A stretch of 64,000 bases of DNA from Clostridia bacterium. Lineage in GTDB: Bacteria > Bacillota > Clostridia > Oscillospirales > CAG-272. The stretch covers positions 37,556 to 101,555 of the forward strand of contig JAFVTH010000011.1 of the NCBI GenBank assembly GCA_017503285.1. Reading direction: 5' to 3'. Shown here one piece after another: positions 7,409-47,008 of the stretch; the stretch's first letter is position 1; each line of letters begins with the position of its first letter. The notes under the pieces were generated by a model. That model was not told where the DNA came from. It saw only the letters and a program-made list of their open reading frames with translations, and made no database searches. A program made the translations under genes and the position numbers.

Positions 7409-9376
7409 TTATTTTTGTGGTCTTGGAATTACGAATACAGGCATTTCAGAAACGTCGATTGTAACATATCCGTCCTCTTCAACAAGGTCGGTTCTTAAAC
7501 CGTTGTATCTTTCAAATGCAAGCTGCGCAAGGATGTAATCACCGTGTCCTACCTTTAGCTTGTAGCCCTCAACGGTAGTTGAATTTGAGGTTGGGCACCA
7601 AACTGCATACTTGTATGCGCCGTCCTTTGTAACATAGCGGAAAATCTTAACATTTTCGTTGCCGGACTCTATCTCGCAGTCAAAGCGAGTGTCGGAAATA
7701 ATTTCCTTAAGAGTATATACATAATAGAAGGAATCCTTCTTATTACCCATGATAACATTATTTGGAGTAATCTCAATTGGGAATCTAACAAGACCGGATG
7801 AGCCGTATTTACCGATTGCGTGCTCCTCAGGGCCGCAGTCACGGGACATATACATGGCAGCTCTTTCAATACCGATAGATGAAAGGAGCAAATATTCACG
7901 CACGAGCCACATACCCTGCACCTGTCTGCCTGTATAATTGCCGTATGCATGGGCAGCGGTAGAGGTTTTGTAGCTTTGGTTAGTATCCCAGCCAAACTCT
8001 GTAAGCCAAATTTCCATATCAGGGCAGTATCTGTCACGCCAATCTCTTATGCAGTCGAAGCGGCCGATGATATCGCCCTCCTCCGGGCTTACGCCAACAT
8101 AAACCTTTTCGCTGAGTGCATCTCTGTCATCAATATTTACGTCAACAAGCTGAATGATACCTGCCTTGTCAACGCTCTTACCACAGTAGCAGTGAGCATT
8201 AATAGCATCGAAAGGAAGCTTTTTGTCCTTTCTGTTGTACTCGCACCAGAACTGCATAGCACGGAGCCTGCCAAGGTGCAAGCCTGCGCCACCGGACATA
8301 GACATAAAGAAGTTAGGGTCAGCCTGCTTAACGCCAACATTTTTATACATACCCTCGTGTCCGTCGTAGCAGATAGACAAAAAGGCAGCCATTTCAAATG
8401 GGGAGAAGTATTGACCTCTGCCAAGCCAAGTACCATCAGGCTCGTTTAACGGCTCAAGGGCGTTTAAAACGCCAAGACCGATTTTCTTTTCCTGTCCCTC
8501 GCCAACCTTTACAGTATCGGGGTCGATATCCTTATTTGAGCCGTAACGGGCAACAAACTGATAAAGCATAGCAGCATAGGAAAGGAAGTTTCTTGGGTCA
8601 TCGCTTGGCTCAAAGCCGTCCTTTGGAAAACGCTTGCTGTGTGTGGAAATTGTTGGGCAAAGCGCAATACCGTAATTGTGCATTCTTGTATAGTAATCAT
8701 CAAAGTCCCACATTTTGTTAAGGCTTGGGTTCATAGAAAGTGTAACATCTGTGCCCTCGCCCTCGCAGGTCCAGGTCCAAGGATGGTATTCACGAATGTA
8801 GGTAACGGCACGGTTAATGTCGTCTGCATCGTTAACAAATGCATTCATACCAACAAAGTGTGAAAGGTCGGAGAACTTGTGCTCCTTTCTTTCAGGAGGT
8901 GTAAGGTCGATATCCTCAACCTTATAGCCGTATATAAGAATTTCGCTAGGAGCTTGGTTGTTGTTGAAGGAAAAGTTAATGAATCTTGTCTTGTAGCCGG
9001 TTTCAAAGCCGGTCCACTCTCTCTCCTTAGGTGCGTGTAATTCGTCGTATTCCCAGCTAAATGGTGTACCCATCTTAACTCTAACCTTACGAACGCCGTA
9101 GTCGTGCTTGTCAGCCTCTGGCTTGTAAGCGTCGTAATCGTTATAGAAATACATATTAGTAATTTGGTAAATTGCGCCTAAATCAACAGTAAAGGCAAGA
9201 TCGGTTTGACCAACCCACCAATGGTCGTGCCTTGGATGCACCTGAGGAATTTGACCCTCAACGCCGTAAAGCGGGTCACCGTCGTTTTCAAACTCACAGA
9301 AAAAGTTTTCAATTCTCTCAAGGCCCATATCGTTGATGAGCATTTCTGGAGTGACTCTAATTTTTTGTGGCTTCAT
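7409..9376 (-). CDS. Clan GH-A-like glycoside hydrolase, family unassigned, no signal peptide
   Basis: An NEP acid/base motif (ALEPLNEPDG, Glu codon 8441..8443) and a nucleophile motif (EIWLTEFGWD, Glu codon 7997..7999) sit in the order expected for a (beta/alpha)8 fold. I place the start at the ATG at 9376, behind AAGGAGAA; the track start at 9424 lacks an RBS. Confidence 0.55.
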   Translation of the reverse strand: MKPQKIRVTPEMLINDMGLERIENFFCEFENDGDPLYGVEGQIPQVHPRHDHWWVGQTDLAFTVDLGAIYQITNMYFYNDYDAYKPEADKHDYGVRKVRVKMGTPFSWEYDELHAPKEREWTGFETGYKTRFINFSFNNNQAPSEILIYGYKVEDIDLTPPERKEHKFSDLSHFVGMNAFVNDADDINRAVTYIREYHPWTWTCEGEGTDVTLSMNPSLNKMWDFDDYYTRMHNYGIALCPTISTHSKRFPKDGFEPSDDPRNFLSYAAMLYQFVARYGSNKDIDPDTVKVGEGQEKKIGLGVLNALEPLNEPDGTWLGRGQYFSPFEMAAFLSICYDGHEGMYKNVGVKQADPNFFMSMSGGAGLHLGRLRAMQFWCEYNRKDKKLPFDAINAHCYCGKSVDKAGIIQLVDVNIDDRDALSEKVYVGVSPEEGDIIGRFDCIRDWRDRYCPDMEIWLTEFGWDTNQSYKTSTAAHAYGNYTGRQVQGMWLVREYLLLSSIGIERAAMYMSRDCGPEEHAIGKYGSSGLVRFPIEITPNNVIMGNKKDSFYYVYTLKEIISDTRFDCEIESGNENVKIFRYVTKDGAYKYAVWCPTSNSTTVEGYKLKVGHGDYILAQLAFERYNGLRTDLVEEDGYVTIDVSEMPVFVIPRPQK

Positions 9377-9614
9377 TTTTGAATTCTCCTTGCGATTTTG
9401 CAAAAGCATAGTAAAGGTGCGCAAAAATCGTAATGCGCCCTTAGGTTGATTATATAATAATCAATGGTAAAAGTCAATAAAAAAAGGGAATTTAAGTCAA
9501 AATAATTTTATGCACGAAAGGGGGTTTTTGTTGACAACGCAAATAATAAATGGTAAAATAAATTGTTAAAATTAGTCGGTAAAATGAATTGCTAAGAAAA
9601 AGAGGTAGAAAAAA

Positions 9615-10829
9615 GTGAAATTAAGTATTATTACATGTGTCTGCAATACTAGCATAGAATATGTTGACGCATGCCTAAGGAGCATAAAAAACTCCACCCT
9701 TAAGGAAGGGGAATATGAGGTTATCTTGGTTGACGACGGCTCACAGGTGGACTACACCAAAATCAGAAAAAAGTACAACCCTGTGTATGTTAAAACAGAA
9801 AACAGAGGACACTTGGCGGCAAGACTCTTCGGTATTATGCTTGCTCGCGGAGAGTATATCACATTTGTTGATTCGGATGATACAGTATCGGCAAACTATC
9901 ACGCGCCAATGCTTGCTTGCGCAGAAAAACAGGGATGCGATATGGTTCTTGGCGACTGGGCATTTTTAAGCGGAAAAACAAGAGCATATCCAAAAAACGA
10001 TATTGTAATTAAGGAAGATATCGACTTAAAGGGAGACGAGGCGCTTGATTTTTATTTCAGCGCCGAGGGTAAATTCCATTCAGTATTCGTGCTTTGGAAC
10101 AAGCTTTTCAAAAGAGAGCTTTTGCTAAGGGCTAAGGCAGAAATTGAAAAAACCAACGCAATTATGTCCCGCTATACATATTCCGAGGATGCGCTTATTA
10201 CATTCTTTGCCTACAAAAATGCAAAGCATATAAAAAATGTGCATACAGGCTACTATTTCTATCGCACACATGCGGGTCAGGGCGTGATGGCAGAGGGCTT
10301 TGACAGTCTTGCTTCCAAAATTGCCCATATGACCTCAACACTAAATATTATGGAAGCGCACACAGAAAATGACAGCCATAAAAACGGCATATGTGCTTGG
10401 CGTGGCATTATGGCAAGAGCGCACTATTCCCACGCAAAGGGTCAAGGCTTAAAATCCCTTTATCCATTGATTTTGGACAAGTATAAGCAGGAAAAATTAC
10501 AGGCTTCAAAGCCAAGCGACGACTATGGATACATGGCAACAGGGCTAATTGCAAGCAACCTTGAGGATATAGACAGCGCGCTTGTGAAAATTACAAAAGA
10601 AGAGGACCCTGTGTACGTTAATTACGATAAAAAGGACTCCTACGTGGTAAATTTCTTCCGCGAAACGGGCAAGGCTGTTGTTTATCTTGACACAGCAAAG
10701 CACTATGTTCCAAGGGCGCAAATTTCTACAAAGGATAAAATCACACACTCTCCGCTTGCATACTTTATTGCTTTAAGGCTTTTCAAAAAAGGCTCAAAGG
10801 CAAGAAAAAAATTGAAGGGTAAGGTGTAA
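9615..10829 (+). CDS. Family-2 glycosyltransferase with ~170-aa C-terminal extension
   Basis: GTG start behind AGAGGTAG. Motifs SIITCVCN, VILVDDGS and FVDSDD are the GT-A DxD signature. Confidence 0.8.
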   Translation: MKLSIITCVCNTSIEYVDACLRSIKNSTLKEGEYEVILVDDGSQVDYTKIRKKYNPVYVKTENRGHLAARLFGIMLARGEYITFVDSDDTVSANYHAPMLACAEKQGCDMVLGDWAFLSGKTRAYPKNDIVIKEDIDLKGDEALDFYFSAEGKFHSVFVLWNKLFKRELLLRAKAEIEKTNAIMSRYTYSEDALITFFAYKNAKHIKNVHTGYYFYRTHAGQGVMAEGFDSLASKIAHMTSTLNIMEAHTENDSHKNGICAWRGIMARAHYSHAKGQGLKSLYPLILDKYKQEKLQASKPSDDYGYMATGLIASNLEDIDSALVKITKEEDPVYVNYDKKDSYVVNFFRETGKAVVYLDTAKHYVPRAQISTKDKITHSPLAYFIALRLFKKGSKARKKLKGKV

Positions 10830-10831
10830 AA

Positions 10832-11638
10832 ATGAAAAAGCTTACTGTTTTACTTTCTCTTGCGCTTGTTATTGCATCACTTTTTGTTCTTGTGTCCTGT
10901 GACGGTGGCGCACCACAGGAAAAATCCTACACCGTAGAGCTTGAGACTGCAAATGGCAAGGTGCTTTCCGGCGCAGTCATAGAATTTGTTGACGAAAACG
11001 GCGCGTTTTTAGATTATAAGGAAATATCCACAGAAAACAAGGCTACCTCAAAGCCACTTAGTGGCAAGGTGCTTGCAAAAATTTCCGATCTACCCCTTGG
11101 ATATGTAGTGTCAAATAGCACGGTAGAGCTAACAGAGGAAGCAACCAAAATTAGTGTTAATACAGAAATAATCAAAAATTACGAGGAGCTACCAAATAGC
11201 CTGTCAGTTGGAGATGTAATGTACGATTTTACATTTACCGACCTTGACGGAAACAGTTACACCCTTTCACAGGTGCTGGAAAGCAAGAAAATGGTGCTTC
11301 TAAACTTCTGGTATTCAACCTGTATGCCCTGTAAGCAGGAATTTCCTGCATTAAACAAGGTTTATCTTGATAACAAGGAAAACGCACTTGTTTTAGGTCT
11401 TAACACCACAGACAACAATTTTTCATCCTTTAAGGACAATTTCGACCCAGCACTTTCAATTCCGCTTTGCAAGGCAGACCTAGAGGTAGAAAGCCTTTTT
11501 GCCCAGGGCCACTCAGGCAACTGGGGCGCGCCTGCCACCGTGGTTATTGACCAAAACGGCATTGTTGCCCTTGTCCACGTTGGACCTATGACCGAGGCTG
11601 AATTTGAAAGCCTCTTTGCCACCTACATCGGCGAGTAA
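10832..11638 (+). CDS. Lipoprotein: prealbumin/Cna-B-like module + TlpA/ResA-like thioredoxin domain (CMPC)
   Basis: Lipobox LVSC. Motif LLNFWYSTCMPCKQEFPAL (CxxC at 11321..11332). The start lies 2 nt after the GT2 stop. Confidence 0.75.
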   Translation: MKKLTVLLSLALVIASLFVLVSCDGGAPQEKSYTVELETANGKVLSGAVIEFVDENGAFLDYKEISTENKATSKPLSGKVLAKISDLPLGYVVSNSTVELTEEATKISVNTEIIKNYEELPNSLSVGDVMYDFTFTDLDGNSYTLSQVLESKKMVLLNFWYSTCMPCKQEFPALNKVYLDNKENALVLGLNTTDNNFSSFKDNFDPALSIPLCKADLEVESLFAQGHSGNWGAPATVVIDQNGIVALVHVGPMTEAEFESLFATYIGE

Positions 11639-11640
11639 AA

Positions 11641-11676
11641 AACAAAAGAGCGAGGCACTTGCCTTGCTCTTTTTTG
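11641..11676 (+). terminator. Rho-independent terminator
   Basis: Hairpin agagcgaggc-actt-gccttgctct followed by TTTTTT. Confidence 0.7.
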
Positions 11677-11888
11677 TTTGAAATTATGTATTTTTGTTAA
11701 ATTTTAATGAATTAAAAGGGTAAAGCTTGTAAGATTATAGACACAGGGTGGGCATTTTTTAACTTGCCGTGTCCACAAGTGGTAGACAAGTGTAGGCAAA
11801 AACTTGACAACTTTTATTTTTTATGATATTATAATATGCGACTATTTTATTTTAATACGTAAATAATATATTTAGGAGAATTAAATTT

Positions 11889-14800
11889 ATGAAAATGAAA
11901 AGAGTGGTTTCACTGCTAATTGCAATGCTACTTTTGTTTAGCGTTGCTTTCCAGCTTGTTTCCTGCGGTGGTGACGGGGACAACGGAGATGGCGGTAACT
12001 CGGGCGAGCCACCTGCCGGCACACCTACAACCTATACCTTTGAGGTTAAGTCTATTGGCGGCATGCCTCTTAAGGACGTTTTGGTTGAGATTTACGACGC
12101 AAATGGCGACCTTGCTGCAAGAGGTCAGAGAACAAATTCCACAGGTATAGCTTCAATTTCCTGTAATGCAGGCACATACACAGCAAAGCTTTCCAACGTT
12201 CCTGAGGGATATGTTGTAAACGAGGCTGGCTATAAGGTATCTGCAAACGGCAACCCAATTGTACTTACCTCCAAGGTTATTGACAACATGGACCTTGACG
12301 GGGTTGAATACAAGGTTGGCGACATTATGCGTGACTTTGAGCTTACAACCATTGATGGAAAGACCTGGAAGCTTTCTGAGGTTCTAAAGGACAAGAAGGC
12401 AGCAGTTCTTAACTTCTGGTACACAACCTGTACCTACTGCATTGGCGAGTTTCCACATATGGAAAACGCATACAACACATACAAGGATAAGCTTGGACTT
12501 ATTGCAATTAACGGTAACTCTCAAGAGGACGTTTTTGATGTTAAGAGCTTCGTTGATGAATTTAAGGACAGATATTATGCTTACTACCCGGTAGCTGATG
12601 CGAACGATAAGGAGGATCTAAAGCTCTCCTTCCCGGTTGCTAAGGATAGCCAAACAAACCCGGTTGAGGAGGCGTTTGCTGCTCCATATGGCGACTCTTG
12701 GGGTAACCCGGTTACAGTTATTGTTGACCGCTACGGCGTTATAACAATGATTTACCTGGGCGCAATTCCATCTGAAAGACACTTCAACACAATTTTTGAC
12801 TACTACACAAGTGATGAATATAAGCAGATGCTTATTGAAACAGAAGAGGATCTTAAAAACCTTGTTCCTACAGAAAAGCCTGACATTGAGCTTCCTGAGG
12901 ACCACTATCAGCAGCTTGAGGACGTGCTTGTAAAGAACGAGGACCAAAAGGACAAATTCACCTTCGAGGCTGAAACAGGCAGTGATGCTGAATATGCTTG
13001 GCCGTTTATCATTATCGACAGAGAAGGCGAAAGCGTTGCTACAACCTCTAACACAGGCAAGGATTCATCTTATTCTATCCTGCACGCAAAGGTAGAGCTT
13101 AAGGCAGGCGAGGCTATTAAGTTTGAGTATTTTGCATCTATGCAAGCGCTTTACGACACCTTCTACGTTCTTGTAAACGAGGAGGATATTTATACAATTT
13201 CATCTAAAAATACCGAGTGGGTTGGCTGTTGCCCATGGGTTGCAAGCGAGGATGGGGTTTATGACGTTGTTCTCCTATACCTTAAGGACCTATCCGGCGA
13301 AAACGGAGAGGACGCAGTTCACCTAAGAGGCTTTGAAATTGTAAATGCCGAGGATCTTGACATTGAGGCATATATCCCAAGAGATGCTGCAACAAATCCA
13401 AACGCAACAAACAGCGACTTTACAAGCTACGCAACTGTTGTTCTTGGTAGCGACGGCTACTATCACGTAGGCACAGAGGATGGACCTATCCTTATGGCAA
13501 GCCTACTTAACTACTCCAACCTTTCAAACAGCTTCAGCGTTTCTGAAAAGCTTTATGAAACATATGAGGAAGCAAGCGACGCCGGCGTGTTTATGGTTAA
13601 CGGCGAAAACAAGTTTGACGCATTTATCCAATACTGTAACTACGCTTCAAACGCAAAAATTTACGGTTATTGCAGCGTTACAGAGGAGCTAAAGACTCTT
13701 CTTGACGAGTTTGCAAAGCAATACGGCTTTGGCGATTACCACGCAAACAAGTGGCTCCAGCTCTGCTCCTACTATGAGGTTTACGGCAAGGATAGCGAGG
13801 GCAATCCTGCAAAGGAGCTTGGTGACATTATTTCCGGTCTTGCAACATTCTCTGCACCAAAGATTGACTTTACACCTGTTATTGACGAGGTAAATCCTGA
13901 AAACAACATTCTTGTTTCTGAGGATTACTACTTCTCCTATGACAGAGTTATTATGCCAAGAGGCTATATGTATGCATTTACACCAACCGTTTCTGGTGTA
14001 TATCGCTTCACATCAAGCAGTGTAAACGAGGTTGTTGGCTGGATTTTCACAGGCAGCCACGAAAATTGGATTGAGCTTGGCGACAGAGTTCTTTATTTGG
14101 ACGGCGACCAGGGCGAAAGATATTGCACCGAGCTTTTGGTTCAGAAGCCGGATGGCACATACGAGAGAGACTTTACCAACGTTTCTATGGTTGCTGAGCT
14201 TGAGGCAGGCAAAACCTACTACATTGATTTTGCTTACTACGATGTATATCAAACAGGCTCATTTAGCATTAACGTAAAATTTGTTGGACATAGCTTTGCA
14301 CATTTCAAGGCTGCATCTCCGGGCTTCTTCACCTACGAGGAAACACAGGATGGCAGTGTTGGTGACTATATTGTTGGCGGCATTAATGTTGAGCTTTGCA
14401 CCGATGAGAGCGATGAAAGATATGGCTACTACTGCCATAAGCTTCCAAATGGCGAGCTTGGCTCCATAATCTACGCAGACTTTATCTACGGAACAAACAT
14501 TTTCCCATCTAACACAATTAAGGGCATGATTGAAAATGGCGCCTTCGATTTCAGTAAAACCGAAATAGATAACGAGGGCTTGACTATTCTTGCAAACAAT
14601 ACCCTTGATGAGCTTAAGGAAACATGGGGCGCAGACTACGACTACTGGTATGAGTTCTATCAATTTGATGACCTTCAAAACGGCATTTACCACGGTAGAG
14701 GACAGGATTTGACCGATGATATTAGCGCATACCTCGATAAGCTTATAGACGATAATGATCATCCTGAGCTTAAAGGCTGTGTTGCTGTTGACGAGGAGCT

Positions 14801-14897
14801 TGCATCCATTTTGCAAAAGCTTGTTGACAAGTTCTCCTTCCAGGTAAACGGCTCTTGGACAAAGGTTTGCTATTATTATGACTATCTCGGCGAGTAA
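11889..14897 (+). CDS. 1002-aa modular lipoprotein: prealbumin-like module, TlpA-like thioredoxin domain (CTYC), large Cys-containing C-terminal region
   Basis: Lipobox LVSC plus a G/D-rich linker. Motif LNFWYTTCTYCIGEFPHM (CxxC at 12429..12440). It shares the DGYYHVGTEDGP module with the next gene. Confidence 0.7.
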   Translation: MKMKRVVSLLIAMLLLFSVAFQLVSCGGDGDNGDGGNSGEPPAGTPTTYTFEVKSIGGMPLKDVLVEIYDANGDLAARGQRTNSTGIASISCNAGTYTAKLSNVPEGYVVNEAGYKVSANGNPIVLTSKVIDNMDLDGVEYKVGDIMRDFELTTIDGKTWKLSEVLKDKKAAVLNFWYTTCTYCIGEFPHMENAYNTYKDKLGLIAINGNSQEDVFDVKSFVDEFKDRYYAYYPVADANDKEDLKLSFPVAKDSQTNPVEEAFAAPYGDSWGNPVTVIVDRYGVITMIYLGAIPSERHFNTIFDYYTSDEYKQMLIETEEDLKNLVPTEKPDIELPEDHYQQLEDVLVKNEDQKDKFTFEAETGSDAEYAWPFIIIDREGESVATTSNTGKDSSYSILHAKVELKAGEAIKFEYFASMQALYDTFYVLVNEEDIYTISSKNTEWVGCCPWVASEDGVYDVVLLYLKDLSGENGEDAVHLRGFEIVNAEDLDIEAYIPRDAATNPNATNSDFTSYATVVLGSDGYYHVGTEDGPILMASLLNYSNLSNSFSVSEKLYETYEEASDAGVFMVNGENKFDAFIQYCNYASNAKIYGYCSVTEELKTLLDEFAKQYGFGDYHANKWLQLCSYYEVYGKDSEGNPAKELGDIISGLATFSAPKIDFTPVIDEVNPENNILVSEDYYFSYDRVIMPRGYMYAFTPTVSGVYRFTSSSVNEVVGWIFTGSHENWIELGDRVLYLDGDQGERYCTELLVQKPDGTYERDFTNVSMVAELEAGKTYYIDFAYYDVYQTGSFSINVKFVGHSFAHFKAASPGFFTYEETQDGSVGDYIVGGINVELCTDESDERYGYYCHKLPNGELGSIIYADFIYGTNIFPSNTIKGMIENGAFDFSKTEIDNEGLTILANNTLDELKETWGADYDYWYEFYQFDDLQNGIYHGRGQDLTDDISAYLDKLIDDNDHPELKGCVAVDEELASILQKLVDKFSFQVNGSWTKVCYYYDYLGE

Positions 14898-14910
14898 TTA
14901 GTTTCAAAAA

Positions 14911-14934
14911 TGCCACGGCGCCTTTGCCGTGGCA
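14911..14934 (+). terminator. Intercistronic 9-bp-stem hairpin (weak terminator or processing site)
   Basis: Hairpin tgccacggc-gccttt-gccgtggca followed only by TTTAC, so the U-tract is poor. Confidence 0.3.
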
Positions 14935-14952
14935 TTTACAAAAGAGGATTTT

Positions 14953-16485
14953 ATGAAAAAAATTATATTAATGCTTCTTGCGGGTGTTTTATTCGTTCTA
15001 TGCCTCGCATCCTGCGGCGGCGACCAGGACCCAACCTATACTGTTACAGTAAAGGATGCCTTTGGCAATGTGCCCGACAAGACTATTTATGTAGAGATTT
15101 ACCAGCCGGCAGAGGACGGCACGGAGACCTTTGTTAAGTTTCTAAAGGCAAACGAGCAGGGTGTTTGCTCCGTAACTCTACCTAAGGCAAGCTATACCTT
15201 CAAAATTTCCACAGCAGATGGGGAAATCAACTACGACAAGACAAGCTGTCACTTTACAGACGAAATTTTATCAAGGGAGGTTGTTGTATATAACGCACCC
15301 GAGGGTGGCATTGATATTACAGCCCCCACAGAGGACGGCTTTGAGGATGTAAAAGCCCCACTTGTTACCGTTGGTGCAACCTATGTGGAGCTTGAGGGTA
15401 ACACATATTTGATTTTCGTGCCGGAAAAGAGTGGCTTTTACAAATTCACCTGTCAGGGCGGCACACTTGAATATCGTGGCGGTACTCACTTTGTTCAAGC
15501 CCAACACGCAGTTGGCAGAGAACAGGACGGCTCCTTTGAAATTGAGGTTAAAAACGGTGGCATAGGCACAGGAGAAACAGGCACAACCAGTCTTGTGCTT
15601 TGCGTTTTACCCGATGACAACAGCACCGGCGCTATCGTTACCATTGAAAGGACTAAGGATGCAACTGTTGATGTTCCATATGATGAAAAGCAGGCAACAG
15701 AGGTATCAAGGGACCCTTATGTTTACGATCTTCTAAACTACCTTATTAAGGACATTGACATAACCGATAAGAGCCTTACTGTTGTTAAGGGACAGGACGG
15801 CTACTATCACATAGGAGATGAAAACGGACCTGTTGTTTATATCAGAATCTCCACAGCAAGCCCATATCTTGCATCCTTTAAGGAAATTTGTGACAAAACA
15901 AGCATAGCTTGTATTGAAAAAAATGCAGATGGCGAAATTATCTTAAAGGAGCGCTATAACGATCTTATTTTGGCTTATGCGGAAAAGTGCGATAAGGCAG
16001 GCATTTGTCCGCTTACTGATGAGCTGAAGTATGTTATCGAAAAGGCCGGCGCGTACTATGGCTGGTTCACAGGCGAGAATAATATTTTCAGTGTATATGA
16101 GGAAGCGCCGGACGGCACAGTTACCGAAAAGCCAATTCTAGGTATAGTTGATAAAAACGCATGGCTCTTTGCCTGCTGTTATCTTGAAAAGGGTACAATC
16201 GGTACAAGTCAGCTGCCAATCAGCATAGCTCCCGTTACAGCTGATGATGAGGGCAATATACCAACCTACAGCGTGCTTCTTAAGGATGAAAGCGCATTCT
16301 TTAGCGTAAGCGCCGGCGGTAAGCTTACCTTGGAAGCTGTTGAGGGCGTTACCCTTACATACGGTGGCAACGAGATAACACCGGTTGATGGCAAAATTAC
16401 ACTTACAATTTCCGGTGCGGACAGCTTTAGCATTACAGTAGCAGGAAATAAGACAGTTACATTTACATACGAGGTTATAAAATGA
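14953..16485 (+). CDS. Modular lipoprotein, paralogous to parts of 11889..14897
   Basis: ATG at 14953 behind AAAGAGGA. Lipobox LASC. Modules TYTVTVKD..., SGFYKFT and DGYYHIGDENGP are shared with neighbouring genes. Confidence 0.6.
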   Translation: MKKIILMLLAGVLFVLCLASCGGDQDPTYTVTVKDAFGNVPDKTIYVEIYQPAEDGTETFVKFLKANEQGVCSVTLPKASYTFKISTADGEINYDKTSCHFTDEILSREVVVYNAPEGGIDITAPTEDGFEDVKAPLVTVGATYVELEGNTYLIFVPEKSGFYKFTCQGGTLEYRGGTHFVQAQHAVGREQDGSFEIEVKNGGIGTGETGTTSLVLCVLPDDNSTGAIVTIERTKDATVDVPYDEKQATEVSRDPYVYDLLNYLIKDIDITDKSLTVVKGQDGYYHIGDENGPVVYIRISTASPYLASFKEICDKTSIACIEKNADGEIILKERYNDLILAYAEKCDKAGICPLTDELKYVIEKAGAYYGWFTGENNIFSVYEEAPDGTVTEKPILGIVDKNAWLFACCYLEKGTIGTSQLPISIAPVTADDEGNIPTYSVLLKDESAFFSVSAGGKLTLEAVEGVTLTYGGNEITPVDGKITLTISGADSFSITVAGNKTVTFTYEVIK

Positions 16486-17687
16486 AAAGATTTTTATTGA
16501 TTTTAAGCATAATGATGCTTGTTTTGTGCCTTGGCGTTTGCCTTGTGGCTTGTGGCGGTGGCGGAGATGAAAACCCACCGGCAGAAACAGGCACAGGCAC
16601 GGGAACAGGCGAAACAAACGGTGGTAACACCGACACTAGCATTACTTATACTGTTACAGTTGTTGACCAGCTTGGCAACCCAATCGAGGGTGTTAATTTG
16701 CAGGTTTGCCACGGCGAGGGTGCAGGTAGCTGTCTAAGAGCAGGGGTTACAGACGCAAACGGCATAAAGACATATTCCGTTAAGGAGGCTCTTGTTAGCC
16801 CAAGAGTGCTTATTAACTCAGCACCGGAAAACTCCGTTTACTCAAGCGAGTATATTTATTTCGACGAGGGCAAAACAGAAATTACCGTTACAGTTGAGCT
16901 AAAGAGCAAGTACACCTTTAGCGTAGCTAACGAGGACGGCACAGTAAAGTATAGTGGCGTTAAGTTCTTTATTTATTCGAGCGCTGAAGGCTCTGTTCTT
17001 GTCGGCCAGGGCGAAAGCGACGAAAATGGTGTTGCAACCGTAGTTGTTGACCCGGGCGAATACTACATTGTGGTAGAGCATCCAAACGATGCGTTTGTGC
17101 TTAAAAACGGCACAAACGGTAACATAGTTACAAATATTGAGGGCTTTGCCTTTAATGCGGTTTTCGAGGAAACAACAGAGAATATTGATTATGCAGTTTT
17201 TGCAAAGGACACGGATGACGCACCTGTTGCGGGCGTGATTGTTAGATTCTTTAGCGATAGCTTTACTTATCTTTGCGAAGGAACGACAGATGAAAACGGC
17301 AAGGCGACAGTTAGCCTTCCAAACGGCAAATATTATGCCTACGCTTTATGCGAGGACAAAAGCGCATCTGCAGTTGTTTTTGAGAAAAACCAGTCAAACG
17401 AGGGTGAGTCTGTAGTTACAAACAGCAAGCCCGGCACCTTTAAGAGCAATGCCATAATGATTCTTAGCTCACGTATCTCTGATATGGCAAAGGGTGAGTA
17501 TTGGTTCTATGTGCCGGATGCAGAAAACTACAAAATTGTTGTAAGTAAAGATAACGGTGTTACGGTTTCAACCACTGACGGCACAGTTACAGATAACACA
17601 ATCGTTTTCGACAAAAAGGACGGTTATTTCAAGCTAAAGGTTATTGGTGACAATACCGGTGTTACCATTGAAAGAGTAGAAAAATAA
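16482..17687 (+). CDS. Lipoprotein with three prealbumin/Cna-B-like repeats
   Basis: ATGA overlap with the upstream stop. Lipobox LVAC and a (GT)n linker. Repeats of the form TD.NG.AT..L..G.Y. Confidence 0.6.
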   Translation: MKRFLLILSIMMLVLCLGVCLVACGGGGDENPPAETGTGTGTGETNGGNTDTSITYTVTVVDQLGNPIEGVNLQVCHGEGAGSCLRAGVTDANGIKTYSVKEALVSPRVLINSAPENSVYSSEYIYFDEGKTEITVTVELKSKYTFSVANEDGTVKYSGVKFFIYSSAEGSVLVGQGESDENGVATVVVDPGEYYIVVEHPNDAFVLKNGTNGNIVTNIEGFAFNAVFEETTENIDYAVFAKDTDDAPVAGVIVRFFSDSFTYLCEGTTDENGKATVSLPNGKYYAYALCEDKSASAVVFEKNQSNEGESVVTNSKPGTFKSNAIMILSSRISDMAKGEYWFYVPDAENYKIVVSKDNGVTVSTTDGTVTDNTIVFDKKDGYFKLKVIGDNTGVTIERVEK

Positions 17688-17701: not shown

Positions 17702-17741
17702 AAAAAACAGACACTCCCCCGAGGGAAGTGTCTGTTTTTTT
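17702..17741. terminator. Bidirectional terminator (CAGACAC...GTGTCTG family)
   Basis: The sequence aaaaaacagacactcccccgagggaagtgtctgttttttt lies between convergent operons. Confidence 0.8.
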
Positions 17742-17750: not shown

Positions 17751-19475
17751 TTAATTGCTTGCTTCGATAACAGCTTTAAGGTCGTCATAGTGGACGGAGG
17801 AGTCAAAGCGGGCAACGATAACGCCGTTTTCGTCAACAATAACCGTCATCGGATAGCTACCAAGACCGCCTAAATCCGTGTAGTATTGGTCAACACCGGG
17901 AACACTGCTTTCCTTGTCAACCAAGAAAATCATCTCGGAGTCAAGATAGATTTTCTCTCCACCAACCACATGGTCCTTTATGTAATTTGGAGCATCGTTT
18001 TCTGCAGTAAAGGCATCGCTTGTGTGGATAGCCACAACAACAACCTGGCCCTTGTAGTCCTCTGCAATCCTATTAAAGTCGGGAAGCTCGGCAACACAGC
18101 CGGAGCACCAAACGCCCCAGAAGTTGATAATTGTAAGCTTGCCTGTTTTTGTTGGGTCAAATGAGAGATATCCGTTTTCATTTTCAACAAAGCCCTGTGC
18201 CTTGTCCTTTTCCTGTGAGTCAGGGGACAAATATCCACCCTCATCAATTGCGTCAAGGGACATAGACGGCGCTTGGTCGCCAACATCAGTACCAAGCTGG
18301 GCAGTAGGCATACCCTCATAAATAAAGTTGTAGTAAATAAGTGCGCCTGCCATTACCACAGCCATAACGGATGCGATAATAATCTTAAATACCTTAGCGC
18401 GCTTTTTGGTTTTTTCACGCTTGATTTCGTTTTCTTCCTTGGCTACCTTAGCCTCATCCTCGCTCATACCGCTTGTGTCAATCTCGTCAGGTGGCAAAAA
18501 GAACTTAGAGCCCTTAAAGGTAATTGCCTTGGTTGGACAAACGTCAATACATTCTCCACAGCTAATACACTCGTGGTCGCCAACGTGCTTAATGTCCATT
18601 TGGCACTTTGAAACACAAAGACCGCAGTTTGTACACTTAGGCTTGTCAACCTTAACGCCAAGCAGGCAGAATTTGTTAAAGAAGCCGTAAATTGCGCCAA
18701 GAGGGCAGAAGAAACGGCAGAAAAATCTGAAAATAAAGATTGAGCCAACAATAAAGCTAACCATAAGGGCAAACTTCCAAGTGAAAAGTGGGCCAAGGTT
18801 TGCAAGCTGGCTTTCGTTTACCTGGTTTGAAAGCAGAGCCACAGCGCCCTCAAGGGTGCCCGCAGGACAAATATACTTACAAAAGGCAGGCAGCGGCACG
18901 TTCCTAAGCCCGTAGGCAATAGGGATAACGACCACAAAGAAAATAAGGATAGGATACTTAAGATATGAAAGAATCCTTGTAAGCTTATTTTTCTTTAGCT
19001 TAGGTGTCTTTATCTTGTGGAAAAGCTCCTGTATAAGTCCAAAGGGACAGAGCCAGCCACAGATGGTCCTACCAAGTATAAGACCATAAAGCATAATAAT
19101 AGCAACTACATAAAACGCCATTGACTTGTTTGCCGCATTAAGCTCAGCCTGAAGTGAGCCAAGAGGGCAGGCAGCCACAGCGCCGGGACAAGAGTAGCAG
19201 TTAAGACCGGGGGCACAAACGCCCTTGGTGTTGCCAACAAAGAACTTGCCTGTAACAAAGCCCTTAAGATGTGCGTTAGTCAAAACAGCAGCATAAAGCT
19301 GGATAAGCTTTCTCTTTGAGGGCTTGATTGAAATAAGCCACTCCTTAAAGGATTTTCTCTTTTTCTTTGGGGGAGTGTCTGTTTTTTCTATTTTTTCCTC
19401 TGTGTTTTCTGCAGAAACTGCGGTAGCATCAGTAGGCTCTTGTTCAAGAGGGGAAACAATCTTTTCGTCTTCCAT
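17751..19475 (-). CDS. Membrane polyferredoxin (NapH/NosR-type CxxxCP modules + two 4Fe-4S motifs) fused via an extra TM helix to a TlpA-like thioredoxin domain (CSGC)
   Basis: Motifs CYSCPGAVAACPLG, CGWLCPFG, CKYICPAG and CRFFCPLG sit in hydrophobic segments. Two ferredoxin motifs follow (CTNCGLCVSKC and CISCGECIDVCP). A TM helix VFKIIIASVMAVVMAGALIYYNF precedes IINFWGVWCSGCVAELPDF (CxxC at 18095..18106). Confidence 0.75.
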   Translation of the reverse strand: MEDEKIVSPLEQEPTDATAVSAENTEEKIEKTDTPPKKKRKSFKEWLISIKPSKRKLIQLYAAVLTNAHLKGFVTGKFFVGNTKGVCAPGLNCYSCPGAVAACPLGSLQAELNAANKSMAFYVVAIIMLYGLILGRTICGWLCPFGLIQELFHKIKTPKLKKNKLTRILSYLKYPILIFFVVVIPIAYGLRNVPLPAFCKYICPAGTLEGAVALLSNQVNESQLANLGPLFTWKFALMVSFIVGSIFIFRFFCRFFCPLGAIYGFFNKFCLLGVKVDKPKCTNCGLCVSKCQMDIKHVGDHECISCGECIDVCPTKAITFKGSKFFLPPDEIDTSGMSEDEAKVAKEENEIKREKTKKRAKVFKIIIASVMAVVMAGALIYYNFIYEGMPTAQLGTDVGDQAPSMSLDAIDEGGYLSPDSQEKDKAQGFVENENGYLSFDPTKTGKLTIINFWGVWCSGCVAELPDFNRIAEDYKGQVVVVAIHTSDAFTAENDAPNYIKDHVVGGEKIYLDSEMIFLVDKESSVPGVDQYYTDLGGLGSYPMTVIVDENGVIVARFDSSVHYDDLKAVIEASN

Positions 19476-19485: not shown

Positions 19486-20310
19486 TTAACCTATACCGAT
19501 ACACTCTTGACAAAGCTTGTTTGCCTTGGCAAGAACAGATTGTACGCCACCGTTTATAATACCTGTGATAAGAAGCACAAGGGCAACGGTAAGCACAACT
19601 AATTGAAGGACTAAAATAATGATTTTTCTGTGCTTTTCAAAAAACGCCTTAGCCCTGCCGAAAATGCTCCTGCCTTCTTCCTTAGAAGATGCAATTTTAG
19701 ACACAGGGTCGGCTTTTTTTGACTCAACCATAGCCGATTTTAGGAACGCAAGCTCCTTTTCATAGCTGGACTTGAACACAAAAACCATAACTATCGAAAG
19801 AACGATTGGAACGATGAGATAAATCAGCATTGCCAAAACGCCCTTGATAACTGTTTCGTTTGGACTTTCTGTAATGCTGTTTGGGTCAAGCAAATAAGCA
19901 AGACAGAAGATGATAGAAGCAATAAGAGATACAGCAAAGACGATACTCAAGGTCATTCTTATGTAGTGCTGTCTTCTTATCTGCTGTTGCTTTTCCTCAC
20001 TTGCTTGGCAAAGAGGGAAGCGCTTGTAAAGATTTTCTAATACTAAAGCCTTGTCAACTGTGCCGACATTCCTTTTTTTCTCCTTAGGGCAGGCGAGGTT
20101 AAGCACAACACCGCCAACGATAAGAGCAAGGAAAATGTAAACAGGAATGGATATTGCTTGAAAATGTGCGCTAATGCTATCTCTTGTAAAGGGGCTGTCT
20201 CCACCTTGATAAATAGAAATACAGGACACAATAAAGCAAATACCAACTGCTATTGCCAGAAGACCAAGGACAATTTCATAGACTAAATGGACAATTTTTG
20301 CCTTCGTCAT
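19486..20310 (-). CDS. Polytopic membrane protein ending in a CxxC motif (…LCQECIGIG)
   Basis: 274 aa with about 5-6 hydrophobic helices. Only a 10-nt gap separates it from the downstream polyferredoxin gene, whose RBS (AAGGGGG) abuts this stop. Confidence 0.55.
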   Translation of the reverse strand: MTKAKIVHLVYEIVLGLLAIAVGICFIVSCISIYQGGDSPFTRDSISAHFQAISIPVYIFLALIVGGVVLNLACPKEKKRNVGTVDKALVLENLYKRFPLCQASEEKQQQIRRQHYIRMTLSIVFAVSLIASIIFCLAYLLDPNSITESPNETVIKGVLAMLIYLIVPIVLSIVMVFVFKSSYEKELAFLKSAMVESKKADPVSKIASSKEEGRSIFGRAKAFFEKHRKIIILVLQLVVLTVALVLLITGIINGGVQSVLAKANKLCQECIGIG

Positions 20311-20669
20311 ATATTACACCCTTCCTCGGTTGTTTTCTGTTAGCATTTTAACACAACATAAAACTAAAGTCAATAAGACACAAAAAAATGAGCCAATAAA
20401 AAGTTGCTAAATTGTAAATTTTTTGTGATTTCTAAAAAAATATTATAACTAAAATTTGTCATGGGAAAGAGGCTCTTAGCTCCTGTGGTTATTGACACCA
20501 GCCCACTTTTCCAACATTATATATAAGGAATTGGTTTACCACTTTAATTTGTTAAACTGATAAAAGATGCTTGAAATTTATAATATTGTGTGTTAAAATA
20601 GTCCCGTATGTTTATCACTTTTATATAATCACACACGTATATAAGAAAAAAGAAAGGCAAAAATTACAC

Positions 20670-23600
20670 ATGAAAAACAAAGTCATTGTAAGGGTGACAT
20701 CGGTTGTCATCTCGCTAATTTTGGCGACAATTTTACTGCTTTCTGTAATCATTCCGTCACTTGGAAAGAGCTATGCATACGACGCTCAGTACATTAGGCA
20801 GTTTACTGATTCTCTTATCACTAACAGGAATCAGTATTTTGATAGCTCAGTTGTTTATGAGCTTCCATCCGGAGTAAAGGATACAGACGAGATATCTGTA
20901 ATTATCAGCCTGTCAAATCCTGCGCTTCTTGATGAATATAACGAAACAAATAAGGAAATGAGCTTTACTGAGTTTGCATTTTCAGAAAGGGCAAATCAGG
21001 TTAGGGCAGAAATCGCCTCTGAAAAGGAGCAAATTTTAGCTACCTTTAAGGAGCAGGGCATTGAGGTAAAAACCGGTGCTGACTATTCTGCTATCCTAAC
21101 AGGCTTTGAGGTTATTATCAAGGCTGGGGACTTTAAGACAATGTCTATGTCCCTTGACAAGGATGTTACCCCAATTGTTTGTGAGGTTTATAAAAAGGCT
21201 GAAACTCAGCTTGTTGAAAATAAGGTTAATGTTAACGAAACCGGTATTTTCAACAGCAAGGAGTATATTGAAAAGTATGGCTATGACGGTACAGGTATGG
21301 TTGTTGCCGTGCTTGACACAGGTCTTGACTATACACACTCCGCATTCTCTGTTAGCAACTTTACCGCTGACAAGACAAAGCTTGGCTTGACAAAGGCTAT
21401 GGTTGCGCAGCTTGTTGGCTCAACAAAGGCAAGCACCTTGCTTCCCGGCCTTACAGAGGACGACGTTTATGTAAATGAAAAGGTGCCATTCTCCTTTGAC
21501 TATGCAGACAGAGACCCGGACGTTTACTCACTACATAATAACCACGGTACTCACGTTTCCGGTGTTATTGTTGGTAAGGACGACACAATTACAGGCGTTG
21601 CGCCAAACGCACAGCTTGTTGCTATGAAAATCTTCTCCGACACTAAGGATTCTGCAATTGCCTCCTGGATTCTTTCCGCACTTGAGGACTGCGTAATTCT
21701 CGGCGTTGACGTAATTAATATGTCACTTGGTACTGCTTGTGGTTTTAGCCGTGAGAGTGACGAGGAAAAGATTTCCGGCGTATATGAAAAAATCCGTGCG
21801 CAGGGCATTAGCTTGGTGGTTGCTGCATCAAACAGCTTTACATCATCCTACGGCTCTGAAAAGAACGGTAACCTTGGTCTTACCTCAAATCCGGACACAG
21901 CTACCGTTGGCTCTCCGTCTACCTACGAGGGTGCGCTTTCCATCGCATCTATCAACGGTATTAAGACACCATACATTCTTTACAATGGCAAGATAGTTTA
22001 CTTTACTGAGTCCAGCGATAGCTCAGCAGAGGAAAGATACTTTGTTGACGGTCTTCTTAAGGAGGGCGTTAACGACATAGAAATTGAATACGTGCTTATT
22101 CCGGGCGTTGGCCGTGATGCCGAGTACACAGGCATCGACGTTAAGGGCAAAATCGCCTTGGTAAAGCGTGGAGATACAACCTTTGAGGAAAAGGCACAGG
22201 CTGCTGAAAAGGCAGGCGCACTCGGCGTTATCGTATACAACAACATTTCCGGTGATATCCGTATGAATGTTGGTACGGTTAAGATTCCTGTTTGCTCAAT
22301 TTCACAGGAGGACGGAGAGGTGCTTGCTGCCGCAAAGCGTGGCACAATCAAGATCAGCAGAGATCAAACCTCCGGTCCGTTTATGTCCGACTTCTCATCC
22401 TGGGGTCCATCTCCAAGCCTTGGCATTAAGCCTGAGCTTACAGCACACGGCGGAAACATTCTTTCTGCTATTACCGGTGGTGGCTATGACCGTCTTTCCG
22501 GTACATCAATGGCTTGTCCTAACACAGCCGGCGTTATTATTCTTCTTCGCCAGTATGTTATTGACAAGTTCCCGGAAATTAAAAACGACCCTGTAAAGGT
22601 TACAGCTCTTGTTAACCAGCTCCTTATGTCAACTGCCGATATTGTTTATAACAAAAACGGCTTGCCATACGCAGTCAGAAAGCAGGGTGCAGGTCTTGCA
22701 AACCTTGAAAGCGCAACTGAAACAAAGGCAATTATCCTTACATATAACAAGGACGGCTCCGTTATGGATAAGTCCAAGCTTGAAATTGGGGACGACGCAG
22801 AAAAGACTGGCGTTTATGAGCTTAATTTCTCCGTTTACAACTTCGGCACAGCCCCGGCGTCCTACATTCTTTCCACCTTCGCAATGACCGAGGGCGTTAG
22901 TGATGTCAGAACACACAAGGGCGAAACAACCGTTACCGAGGAGGGCTATCTCCTTGAGGGCGCAACCGTTTCCTTTACCGTTGAAAACGGCACACAAAAC
23001 GGGGACACCATTACAGTTGAGGCTGGCAAAACCGCAAAGATTAAGGTTACAATCACATTGAGCGACGAGGATAAAAAGTACCTTGACGAGTCCTTTGAAA
23101 ACGGTATGTATATTGAGGGCTTTGTAGAGCTTGATGCAACAGGCGATACAAAGGAAGACCTTTCTGTTCCTTACCTTGCATTCTATGGCGACTGGACAGA
23201 GGCTCCAATCCTTGACCTTGATTATTTCGAGACAAACAAGGACGAGCTTAATGACTCTATCCCAACACTTGATAAGACTCTTCCGGATGCTTACGCAACA
23301 CGTCCGATCGGCGGTATGTTCAGCGACTACATTTCATACCTCGGCTCCTACTACTTCCAGCAAAACCCTGCAAATCAGATTATTTCTGCAAGCAGAGATT
23401 ATATTGCACTTTCCAACGTTTCTGTTTCTGACTACGCAACAGAGGCAGACCAGGATATTGCGACAATCCATAGCCTAAGATTTATTTGGACAGGTATGCT
23501 TCGTAACGCGGAAAAGGTTGTTGTTACAATTACCGATGACGCAACGGGCGAGGTTATACACGAGGTTGTTGATGACGATGTTCGTAAGTCCTATGGCGAC

Positions 23601-29462: not shown

Positions 29463-29507
29463 TTTAGTCAAATAAATTTAACTTACATAGATTAAGGAGA
29501 AACAAAC

Positions 29508-32150: not shown

Positions 32151-32172
32151 TTGATTGGAGTAAAATAATAAA

Positions 32173-33165: not shown

Positions 33166-33179
33166 GGGGGTAAGATAAG

Positions 33180-34589: not shown

Positions 34590-34591
34590 TT

Positions 34592-46054: not shown

Positions 46055-46056
46055 TC

Positions 46057-46088
46057 AAAAAAAGCCGACCCCCGTGTCGGCTTTTTCT
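46057..46088 (+). terminator. Rho-independent terminator (GCCGAC...GTCGGC family)
   Basis: The sequence aaaaaagccgacccccgtgtcggcttttt. Confidence 0.8.
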
Positions 46089-46137
46089 TGTTTTCTAGCA
46101 CCAAGACTATACCCACGTACCTAAGGCGTAGATTCGT

Positions 46138-46311
46138 TTACTTGGTGCTTTTGTTTTTGTTTGCTTTCTCTAAAACAATCAATACGCCGTTTTCTTGTGG
46201 AATAACTTGAACCATACAGTTATCCTCAAACCCATAGTGCTTGCGCACATCCTTTGGAATAACAACCCTACCTAAGCTATCAAACTTTTTGACAATTACA
46301 AAGCTCTTCAT
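46138..46311 (-). CDS. AbrB/SpoVT-domain small DNA-binding protein (57 aa), absent from the ORF track
   Basis: Reverse translation gives MKSFVIVKKFDSLGRVVIPKDVRKHYGFEDNCMVQVIPQENGVLIVLEKANKNKSTK. The LGRVVIPK..R motif is the swapped-hairpin signature. AAGGAG lies 7 nt upstream of the ATG. Confidence 0.7.
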   Translation of the reverse strand: MKSFVIVKKFDSLGRVVIPKDVRKHYGFEDNCMVQVIPQENGVLIVLEKANKNKSTK

Positions 46312-46434
46312 TTTACAACTCCTTTTTGGTTAAAATTTTAACTGTTAGCTTATTTTATCACAATAAAAGCGAGAAGTTTGTCGAATTTTGTAGTTAAGTA
46401 AAAAAATCCAAATAAAAAGGTGCTAAATAGCACC

Positions 46435-46758: not shown

Positions 46759-46772
46759 ACTGTACCTCTTTA

Positions 46773-46859: not shown

Positions 46860-47008
46860 TAAATTCAAAGCTTGAAAAGGCAATAATCAAGTTGTTTTTG
46901 CCCCAAAACAACCTTTAGAATCTTTTGCTACTAAAAATCAGTTTTGAAAAGCGTTCTTTTTGGCTTGATTTGGTACAAATTCAAAAGGTTACTTGTGGTA
47001 CTAAAATG

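Follow-up and report, generated by a model that had tools for sequence, protein, structure and literature searches.

The closest described relatives of the proteins considered here are ResA, TlpA and CcmG (DsbE), which combine a thioredoxin fold bearing the extra elements of their family with a C-x-x-C-x-x-E-F-P active site and a membrane tether on the outer face. In the pneumococcal Etrx1/Etrx2-CcdA1/2-MsrAB2 system, Gram-positive surface thioredoxin lipoproteins are found beside a membrane electron supplier (PMC3914529). NapH-like systems, such as NosR, PceC and the flavinylated clusters, are typified by a multi-transmembrane Fer4_5 protein with CX3CP motifs and two cytoplasmic [4Fe-4S] motifs, and by an extracytosolic redox mediator that is fused to it or encoded beside it (PMC8238504). 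Extracytoplasmic thiol redox chemistry is poorly understood in anaerobic Clostridia, and a 2025 survey of clostridial Dsb proteins did not find the regenerating partners of several of these enzymes (PMC12453122). Here we analyze a locus within a window of 64,000 nucleotides (nt; the whole stretch of DNA studied, to whose positions all coordinates refer) from contig JAFVTH010000011.1 of a Clostridia bacterium (GCA_017503285.1). In this locus, genes for four lipoproteins, A to D, lie close to those for a membrane iron-sulfur (Fe-S) protein, E, its neighbor F and a giant protease, G (Table 1).

Envelope thioredoxins can also be fused to the thiol-dependent domains that they regenerate, as in PilB of Neisseria, a Trx-MsrA-MsrB fusion. 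Ferredoxin:thioredoxin reductase provides a precedent for the Fe-S-mediated reduction of a thioredoxin disulfide with ferredoxin electrons. In the lactococcal PrtP-PrtM-Opp system, and with S8-PA-fn3_5 proteases of the C5a-peptidase type, an envelope subtilase, accessory lipoprotein(s) and an oligopeptide ATP-binding cassette (ABC) importer occur together.

The present locus resembles each of these systems in part. The thioredoxin domains of A and B follow the ResA/TlpA/CcmG plan, but they fall below the NCBIfam cut-offs, the B family has CTYC or CSWC at its active site, and there is no cytochrome c maturation context; moreover, an immunoglobulin-like (Ig-like) stalk precedes the domain, and in B about 680 amino acids (aa) of undescribed domains follow it. 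In contrast to the Etrx system, the presumed electron supplier is a NapH-type Fe-S protein with a CxxC-tail partner rather than CcdA, and there is no Msr client, the candidate client being a module termed DGYYH or the proteins bound by it. Unlike the NapH-like flavinylated systems, the mediator has a thioredoxin fold instead of being an ApbE-flavinylated domain that binds flavin mononucleotide (FMN), and it is accompanied by an obligatory CxxC-tail partner of the CD1871A type. The counterpart of the PilB fusion would be the thioredoxin domain and two DGYYH modules of B, although DGYYH has no detectable relation to the Msr domains. Ferredoxin:thioredoxin reductase differs in being soluble, unrelated in sequence and without transmembrane action. 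As in PrtP-PrtM-Opp, an envelope subtilase, accessory lipoproteins and an Opp importer are encoded together, but the accessory lipoproteins are of the thioredoxin/DGYYH kind and not PrsA-type foldases, and the protease carries about 900 aa of BspA-type leucine-rich repeats (LRRs). The TlpA-like lipoproteins, the NapH-like membrane Fe-S protein and the Ig-like stalks are known kinds of part. What appears to be undescribed is the DGYYH module with its restriction to thioredoxin-carrying or thioredoxin-adjacent proteins, the trio of thioredoxin, CD1871A-type and NapH-like proteins, and the coupling of DGYYH and this trio to a giant S8 protease. We read the cluster, with a confidence that comes close to but falls short of an even chance, as a dedicated surface thiol-redox system in which E and F would supply the thioredoxin domains of E, A and B.

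Thioredoxin domains and shared modules of the lipoproteins

Searches recovered 403 homologs of B at E<=1e-5, mostly full length and 37-88% identical to it, of which 62 were aligned over their full length; their sources name them only 'redoxin domain-containing protein'. C has 42 homologs, with Pfam domains only in three outliers (Ig-like/dockerin/redoxin). In A and B themselves, the Redoxin/AhpC-TSA matches obtained with Pfam are at the E=1e-14 level (A 126-259, Redoxin E=9e-15; B 142-295), and A additionally matches the ResA subfamily of NCBIfam with E=3e-17, which is below cut-off. Foldseek searches with an AlphaFold2 (AF2) model of B retrieve ResA with TM-scores of 0.84-0.89 and E of about 1e-8, together with other TlpA/DsbE-type proteins and Etrx1/Etrx2 (0.76-0.89 on the target overall). 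Hence, membership in the TlpA/ResA/DsbE superfamily is indicated by fold for B and by above-threshold Pfam matches for A, B and E. A first-pass annotation of this DNA had proposed TlpA-like domains in two of the lipoproteins, with the motifs CMPC in A (11321-11332) and CTYC in B (12429-12440). Pfam recognizes both, and the region of B does adopt the fold when modeled.

Four residues of B, C181, C184, E187 and P274, are invariant in the 62 homologs, with the local consensus NFWYTTCTYCIEEFP; the equivalences to the cis-Pro and to Glu80 of ResA were assigned by alignment logic and not from structure. The active site of B conforms to the ResA arrangement C-x-x-C-x-x-E-F-P, and the same spacing is seen in A (CMPCKQEFP) and E (CSGCVAELP). 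The dipeptide between the cysteines varies, with CTYC in 33, CSWC in 16 and CSYC in six members of the B family, and CGPC, CPGC and CSGC in the E family. None of the ResA, DsbE, TlpA and StoA cut-offs of NCBIfam is reached, the best score being 63 bits against the 170 of the ResA subfamily, and we regard the domains of A and B as predicted members of the superfamily that lack a named orthologous group. Their AhpC-TSA match is the usual cross-match of TlpA-like domains. One homolog (P0012) is labeled a peroxiredoxin, which we rejected because its active site, WYTTCTYC, is a CxxC motif devoid of the Pro/Thr context of PxxxTxxC.

The DGYYH module is common to B and C, as had been proposed in the first-pass annotation: BLASTP comparison of all four lipoproteins against each other aligns B 516-614 with C 276-371 (E=3e-9), and hhalign matches B 491-645 with C 255-416 at 99% (E=5.5e-18). 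A second copy, previously unseen, is present at B 813-1002 and matches the first at 97.8% (E=1e-12). The 15-nt identical core that had been reported for the two genes, GACGGCTACTATCAC, is indeed present at exactly two places, 13452 and 15796. Over the 54 nt around it, identity is no more than 72%, and this argues for an old paralogy under peptide constraint; recent gene conversion was rejected on the same grounds. The module has no sequence relative in Pfam, NCBIfam or the PDB, and phmmer and profile searches with B 321-1002 and the C family against PDB sequences returned nothing relevant. The models give it an alpha/beta secondary structure. Thioester (TED), sortase-like, SGNH-like and choline-binding-repeat identities were dropped by reasoning only, as neither their secondary structure nor the order of their motifs fits.

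A three-sequence profile of the window copies detected the DGYYH module in 934 of 1.84 billion representative proteins at E<=1e-3. The best 150 matches are proteins either of about 900-1,440 aa with at least two copies, or of about 420-640 aa, most with a single copy. In a deliberately varied set of nine hits, the five that exceed 700 aa all have a redoxin/AhpC-TSA domain, and no other Pfam family is seen in any of the nine; the module was found only in proteins that carry a redoxin domain or are encoded beside one that does. Across 479 instances a strand cysteine (C626 and C994 in B, C408 in C) is present in 98%, and a partner cysteine at the start of the preceding helix in 74%, the strand cysteine occurring without this partner in 24%. 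Asp522 and His526, which belong to the eponymous DGYYH motif, are conserved in about 99% and 97% of the aligned instances, respectively. This pattern fits a functional site better than it does an obligatory structural disulfide, and the candidates are a catalytic cysteine with a resolving cysteine or a set of ligands. Taken together, the restriction to thioredoxin company and the conserved Asp, His and Cys favor a function in redox chemistry or catalysis over simple binding.

The remaining architecture of the four proteins was delineated with profiles, Pfam and models. All four have a signal peptide with a hydrophobic h-region followed by a lipobox of the form [LVI][ASTVI][GAS]C (LVSC, LVSC, LASC and LVAC in A to D) and then a G/D/T-rich linker. 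The lipobox cysteine is invariant in 62/62 homologs of B and 40/40 of C. At the protein level, the whole of A aligns with B 7-309 (E=3e-39), and a profile of the first domain of B finds A 29-113, C 27-87 and D 52-139, 141-199 and 233-288; B and C are matched in this domain by hhalign with 97.6% probability. The prealbumin-like SpaA family is above the Pfam threshold of 23.1 bits in B (57-121, 25.2 bits) and D (30.6 bits), and D also matches Big_1 (49 bits) and CarboxypepD_reg, whereas no family passes its threshold in C; profile matches alone connect A and C with the SpaA-type Ig-like domains. A beta-sandwich is seen at the corresponding positions of the AF2 models (B 46-128, C 28-111), which were built from family alignments with predicted local distance difference test (pLDDT) scores of 88 for B and 90.8 for C. 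Profiles and models together resolve B into an Ig-like domain (45-130), the thioredoxin domain (138-312), a beta-sandwich (355-490), the first DGYYH module (491-645), another beta-sandwich (672-812) and the second DGYYH module (813-1002). In C, the order is Ig-like (25-112), beta-sandwich (113-240), DGYYH (255-416) and beta-sandwich (420-510).

These results sustain much of what the first-pass annotation had claimed of the group, namely four lipoproteins with such linkers, a prealbumin-like first module common to all of them, and a paralogous, domain-shuffled family, with Ig-like, ResA-type thioredoxin and DGYYH modules held in common. Two of its claims fared less well. The pre-peptidase C-terminal (PPC)-like module said to recur in three proteins shrinks to a motif of 15-19 residues in B (695-713) and C (154-168), with profile scores of 6-7 bits and an hhalign probability of 72% over 19 columns; it has no counterpart in D, and isolated segments gave no Pfam PPC match even at E<=10, while a 157-aa viral 'VesC' beta-sandwich is matched weakly (TM-score 0.49). 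Likewise, the many paired cysteines seen in the C-terminal 680 aa of B were overstated, since there are ten cysteines in this region, of which six are conserved, and their predicted arrangement is not a simple pattern of structural disulfides. The isolated segments yielded nothing above threshold with Pfam at E<=10, a GLEYA match to B 672-812 being below it. Foldseek of the whole of B against the PDB gave matches to the thioredoxin domain and none to the C-terminal 680 aa, and comparisons of C with the PDB and of B with viral models gave generic beta-sandwiches only (TM-score<=0.16, root mean square deviation >13 Å).

Other genomes apparently recombine the lipoprotein modules into further combinations. 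One related locus (L070, 14130-17597) encodes a 1155-aa lipoprotein of the composition Ig-Trx-Big_1-CarboxypepD_reg, which resembles a fusion of A with D. Inside the cluster there are also short redoxins that stand alone, of 202 aa in one locus (L083, 14024-14632) and 163 aa in another (L002, 19462-19953).

Membrane partners and the conserved neighborhood

In E, Pfam detects Fer4_5 in three stretches (E=5e-18), Fer4 in two, and a C-terminal AhpC-TSA/Redoxin domain, so that E has a thioredoxin domain of its own, which the first-pass annotation had missed. Its Fer4_5 units with CX3CP, followed by two C-terminal 4Fe-4S motifs, are those of the NapH/MauN type, and the 16 cysteines of these motifs are all invariant. 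Its score of 83 bits does not reach the NapH/MauN subfamily cut-off of 213, and no NapA/G or Mau genes are present among the Pfam-scanned window ORFs (open reading frames). Of its 21 cysteines, 20 are invariant in 35 homologs: these form a CX5CX2CX6CP motif (C87, C93, C96, C103), three CX3CP pairs, eight ferredoxin cysteines and the CxxC. Hydropathy and the positive-inside rule suggest that E has its N-terminus inside, exposes the C87-C103 motif and the C199/C203 pair at the outer face, and keeps its ferredoxin motifs and the remaining two CX3CP pairs on the inner side. A helix at 362-380, preceded by a K/R-rich stretch, would then place the thioredoxin domain outside. By the same approach, the CxxC tail of F is predicted to be outside. 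This tail matches NF040920 over the last 38 residues (E=8e-9; 35.2 bits against a cut-off of 32), which places F among the CD1871A-type proteins. F differs from their usual 40-65-aa form in having four extra transmembrane helices, and the CxxC of its tail is preserved in 57/57 homologs, with the consensus KAIxICTECIG(L/M)G. Meheust et al. (2021) reported NapH-like proteins with a flavinylated FMN-binding domain in the same position as the thioredoxin domain of E, and noted parallels between flavin- and thioredoxin-based mediators (PMC8238504). Our literature searches turned up no publication about CD1871A or about fusions of NapH with thioredoxin.

Homologs of E number more than 5,500 at E<=1e-5 in one search, and the best 120 are all Fer4_5 and redoxin fusions named only '4Fe-4S binding protein' or 'redoxin family protein'. 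For a wider comparison we used 80 metagenomic relatives with 33-61% identity. An ORF with a CD1871A-type tail, usually a single-helix protein of 40-65 aa, ends at the start of the NapH-like gene in 74 of the 76 relatives that have upstream sequence. The thioredoxin part is fused downstream in 37 and is located upstream in 24. In one case (L110, 9602-11385) there are three separate genes, for a lipoprotein thioredoxin of 246 aa (WCGPC), a CxxC-tail protein of 65 aa and a NapH-like protein of 277 aa. This pattern of fusion and fission indicates that lipoprotein thioredoxins are likely to be working partners of the NapH-like/CD1871A pair.

The trio of NapH-like polyferredoxin, CD1871A-type CxxC-tail protein and TlpA-like thioredoxin is near-obligate in many gut-metagenome contigs. 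In a close relative (L084, 10001-12292), the E homolog is a 763-aa protein with two tandem redoxin domains after the NapH-like part. In 17 of the 80 metagenomic relatives (e.g. L150, 7135-9010), the genes adjoining the trio encode a histidine kinase and a response regulator of the OmpR type, suggesting that its expression may be regulated in the lineages with such neighbors. Two-component systems and ABC ATPases are the main neighbors of the distant relatives of E, and these carry little functional information.

A total of 445 stretches in a collection of species-representative genomes match B, of which 80 loci were kept for analysis of synteny, with the window proteins compared by tblastn. 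All are from metagenome-assembled genomes (MAGs), most from the guts of ruminants or other herbivores, labeled Clostridia, Eubacteriales, Oscillospiraceae, Acutalibacteraceae or Faecousia, with a few of Lachnospiraceae type. A homolog of C directly follows B in 70 of the 72 loci with enough downstream sequence, and B-C(-D) is predicted to be a conserved operon of uncultured herbivore-gut Clostridia. Of the 40 loci with both flanks, 30 have E and 31 have G no more than 10 kb from B; 34 have at least one of the two, and 27 have both. E and F are direct neighbors wherever they were seen (43/43 loci). One MAG, GCA_017461385.1, has F-E-G on one contig and B-C-D on another. The gene orders vary (B C E< F< G>; <G B C E< F<; <G B C F> E>; F> E> B C G>), such that E/F are convergent with, co-directional with or upstream of B, and G, whose association with B had not been noticed in the first-pass annotation, is found on either side of it. 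As the association survives rearrangement, it constitutes good evidence of a functional link. The suspicion, voiced in that annotation, of a tie to the convergent polyferredoxin operon is supported by this synteny (E/F near B in 30/40), by the TlpA-like domain of E and by the distant three-gene trios; the question of whether the lipoprotein and polyferredoxin genes are ever syntenic is thereby answered in favor of the link.

The genes beyond G extend the conserved neighborhood, with the order OppA-U465-G, U465 being a 465-aa protein (Table 1), retained wherever the flank of a related locus is covered. The Opp-type importer has an unusually long, 880-aa SBP_bac_5 protein, two permeases and two ATPases, and displays the OppC_N and oligo_HPY features of peptide importers in Pfam.

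A putative surface thiol-reducing system and its alternatives

Under the proposed thiol-redox system, a low-potential donor in the cytoplasm would deliver electrons to the two [4Fe-4S] motifs that E has on that side, and E would pass them across the membrane by way of its invariant CX3CP and CX5CX2CX6CP cysteine motifs. With the external CxxC tail of F, it would reduce its own external thioredoxin domain, which in turn would keep the CxxC sites of the lipoproteins A and B reduced. A and B would then reduce disulfides at the cell surface. Their targets could be the cysteine pair of the DGYYH modules in B and C, in which case DGYYH would be a new end-point domain that depends on thiols; proteins that the beta-sandwich and DGYYH modules bind en route to the S8 protease and Opp uptake; or the S8 protease itself. 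The reductive direction is favored by the ResA-like active-site context and by the downhill transfer from ferredoxin to a thioredoxin disulfide, reduced ferredoxin being at about -400 mV and thioredoxin-type disulfides at about -250 mV. Pfam scans of window ORFs of at least 180 aa detected no CcdA/DsbD, Msr or thioredoxin reductase, and no FMN-binding domain or ApbE.

Several points weigh against this proposal. Every step of the electron path is a prediction, and the case is weakest with regard to the terminal substrate. G was considered as a client by way of the many cysteines of LRR_5 repeats, but this is not compelling, as it has only 25 cysteines in 2474 aa. Gene neighborhood is the sole evidence that would tie the system to proteolysis. 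Ten of the 40 fully covered loci are without E/F within 10 kb of B, and the loci lacking E/F mostly have distant B homologs (about 38-40% identity), several labeled Acutalibacteraceae or Faecousia. The scan for CcdA/DsbD covers the window, and a conventional electron donor might be encoded elsewhere in the genome. Furthermore, the C-[ST]-[YWF]-C motif of B is atypical for ResA/TlpA reductases, and NapH itself is regarded as a quinol dehydrogenase and not as ferredoxin-linked.

The active-site dipeptide of B has an aromatic second residue (CTYC/CSWC), as is found in DsbC/DsbG-type isomerases. In one alternative, the thioredoxin domains of A, B and E might introduce or shuffle disulfides in the DGYYH modules or in G, with E/F acting as an electron sink in place of the DsbB or VKOR that these anaerobes lack. 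Such a role would suit the conservation of the DGYYH cysteine pair in 74% of instances and recalls the mau clusters, in which the redoxin MauD is paired with the NapH-like MauN; clostridial DsbA homologs, too, are still without a known re-oxidizing partner (PMC12453122). However, these domains resemble ResA/TlpA, down to the Glu of ResA type that follows the CxxC, and the ResA/TlpA family acts reductively. Electron flow from thiols to a ferredoxin-type cluster would be thermodynamically uphill, and the 24% of modules that retain the strand cysteine alone are unlike an obligatory structural disulfide. We therefore consider oxidative folding or isomerization distinctly improbable. The surface architecture raises another question, whether B, C and D mainly bind plant or host polymers while the thioredoxins only protect or repair oxidized surface proteins, as Etrx1/2 serve pneumococcal MsrAB2, and have no dedicated substrate in the cluster. 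The Ig-like stalks and beta-sandwiches do resemble pilins and CUB, galactose-binding and phage receptor-binding domains, B 672-812 has its weak GLEYA match, and the LRRs of the neighboring protease are typical of adhesins; in addition, the Etrx lipoproteins are among the structural matches (Foldseek ranks 30-41; PMC3914529). This explanation is nevertheless unlikely in our view, given that no Msr gene is present in the window or the inspected loci, and that DGYYH, with its conserved Asp, His and Cys, occurs only with or beside redoxin proteins.

The same three residues could alternatively bind a metal. E would then resemble CcoG, the cupric reductase of the NapH family, and the thioredoxin lipoproteins would resemble Sco/TlpA or FetE-type redoxins, with uptake possibly via the SBP_bac_5 transporter, whose family includes the nickel-binding NikA. 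There is a weak CcoG match on E (E=1e-3), the FetE of a Campylobacter iron system is among the fold matches (Foldseek rank 37), D and one homolog have weak NikL and DUF4198 matches, and P19 iron-uptake clusters use FMN-binding or thioredoxin-like proteins (PMC8238504). Yet every match that relates to metals falls far short of its threshold, no family of metal transporters or chaperones was detected, the conserved partner is a protease, and the transporter has the peptide-importer features described above, all of which renders a metal-handling role very improbable.

Returning to the thiol-reducing system, the locus points to a membrane Fe-S protein with a small CxxC protein as a candidate electron link to surface thioredoxins, to a new family of cysteine-bearing domains that was seen only in the company of thioredoxin domains, and possibly to a coupling of disulfide reduction with the degradation of proteins and the uptake of peptides in bacteria that are abundant in herbivore guts but uncultured. 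Should electrons take the proposed path, it would represent a third type of mediator beside DsbD/CcdA and the flavinylated systems. In its most far-reaching form, which we consider on balance doubtful, the trio would be an unrecognized Fe-S-based means, independent of DsbD/CcdA, by which strictly anaerobic Firmicutes of the gut export reducing power from ferredoxin-level donors in the cytoplasm to their surface. B and C would be its dedicated clients, and DGYYH a new thiol-dependent catalytic domain (Asp/His/Cys with a resolving Cys) working with the giant protease.

Layout and other features of the window

The features are collected in Table 1. The start of D overlaps the stop codon of C by 4 nt, and the gap between B and C is 55 nt. 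A begins 3 nt past the gene for a GT2 glycosyltransferase, and a consensus scan detects no terminator between them. The promoter- and terminator-like elements suggest two predicted transcription units, GT2-A and B-C-D, with A apart from the latter; these calls are consensus matches and not proof. The last 16 nt of A and of B are almost identical (11623-11638 and 14882-14897; ...Y-I/L-G-E-stop), probably by coincidence or as a remnant of common origin.

Table 1. Coordinates of the genes, domains and putative signals of the locus within the window
Feature	Position	Strand	Description
671-aa protein	7409-9424	-	divergent from GT2; no Pfam match; no signal peptide seen
Promoter-like site 5' of GT2	9531-9559	+	consensus scan
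GT2 glycosyltransferase	9615-10829	+	Pfam Glycos_transf_2, E=2e-24
Lipoprotein ORFs A, B, C, D	10832-17687	+	ORF list
A	10832-11638	+	268-aa lipoprotein: Ig-like aa 29-113, ResA/TlpA-type thioredoxin domain aa 126-262
Terminator-like hairpin closing GT2-A unit	11644-11673	+	13-bp stem, then T-run
Promoter-like site 5' of B	11804-11832	+	TTGACA-17-TATTAT, extended TG; 11/12, consensus match only
B	11889-14897	+	1002-aa lipoprotein
Thioredoxin (ResA-like) domain of B	12300-12824	+	Foldseek, Pfam
DGYYH module 1 of B	13359-13823	+	D522, H526, C595, C626
DGYYH module 2 of B	14325-14894	+	C964, C994, equivalent to C595, C626
C	14953-16485	+	510-aa lipoprotein; GTG 14929 is the alternative ORF start
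DGYYH module of C	15715-16200	+	aa 255-416
D	16482-17687	+	401-aa lipoprotein: three tandem Ig-like domains, then C-terminal beta domain
Bidirectional terminator-like hairpin between D and E	17702-17740		18-bp stem, A-run and T-run flanks
E	17751-19475	-	NapH/MauN-type membrane polyferredoxin aa ~50-325; fifth transmembrane helix 362-380; TlpA-like ~430-574, WCSGC
F	19486-20310	-	five predicted transmembrane helices; CD1871A-type tail ...KANKLCQECIGIG (nt 19489-19602)
G	20571-27995	+	2474-aa membrane-anchored S8 protease; PA, fn3_5, ~900 aa BspA-type LRR_5 (Pfam)
U465 and Opp block	28065-36914	+	465-aa protein without Pfam match, then Opp-type ABC importer 29508-36914 (Pfam)
tRNA-Gln	59521-59594	-	sole tRNA of the window

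The pair of GT2 and the 671-aa protein precedes the B homolog in 16 related loci, with the GT2 gene directly upstream of it and tblastn scores of about 1,000-1,200 bits for the 671-aa protein. Two further small BspA-type LRR_5 proteins are encoded at 6192-7358 (+) and 52906-53697 (-), so that LRR_5 surface proteins are abundant in the source genome. The G+C content of two 2-kb bins, 46001-48000 and 58001-60000, is 0.36, against about 0.43-0.45 elsewhere in the window; the second of these bins is without ORFs of at least 180 aa and holds the tRNA gene.

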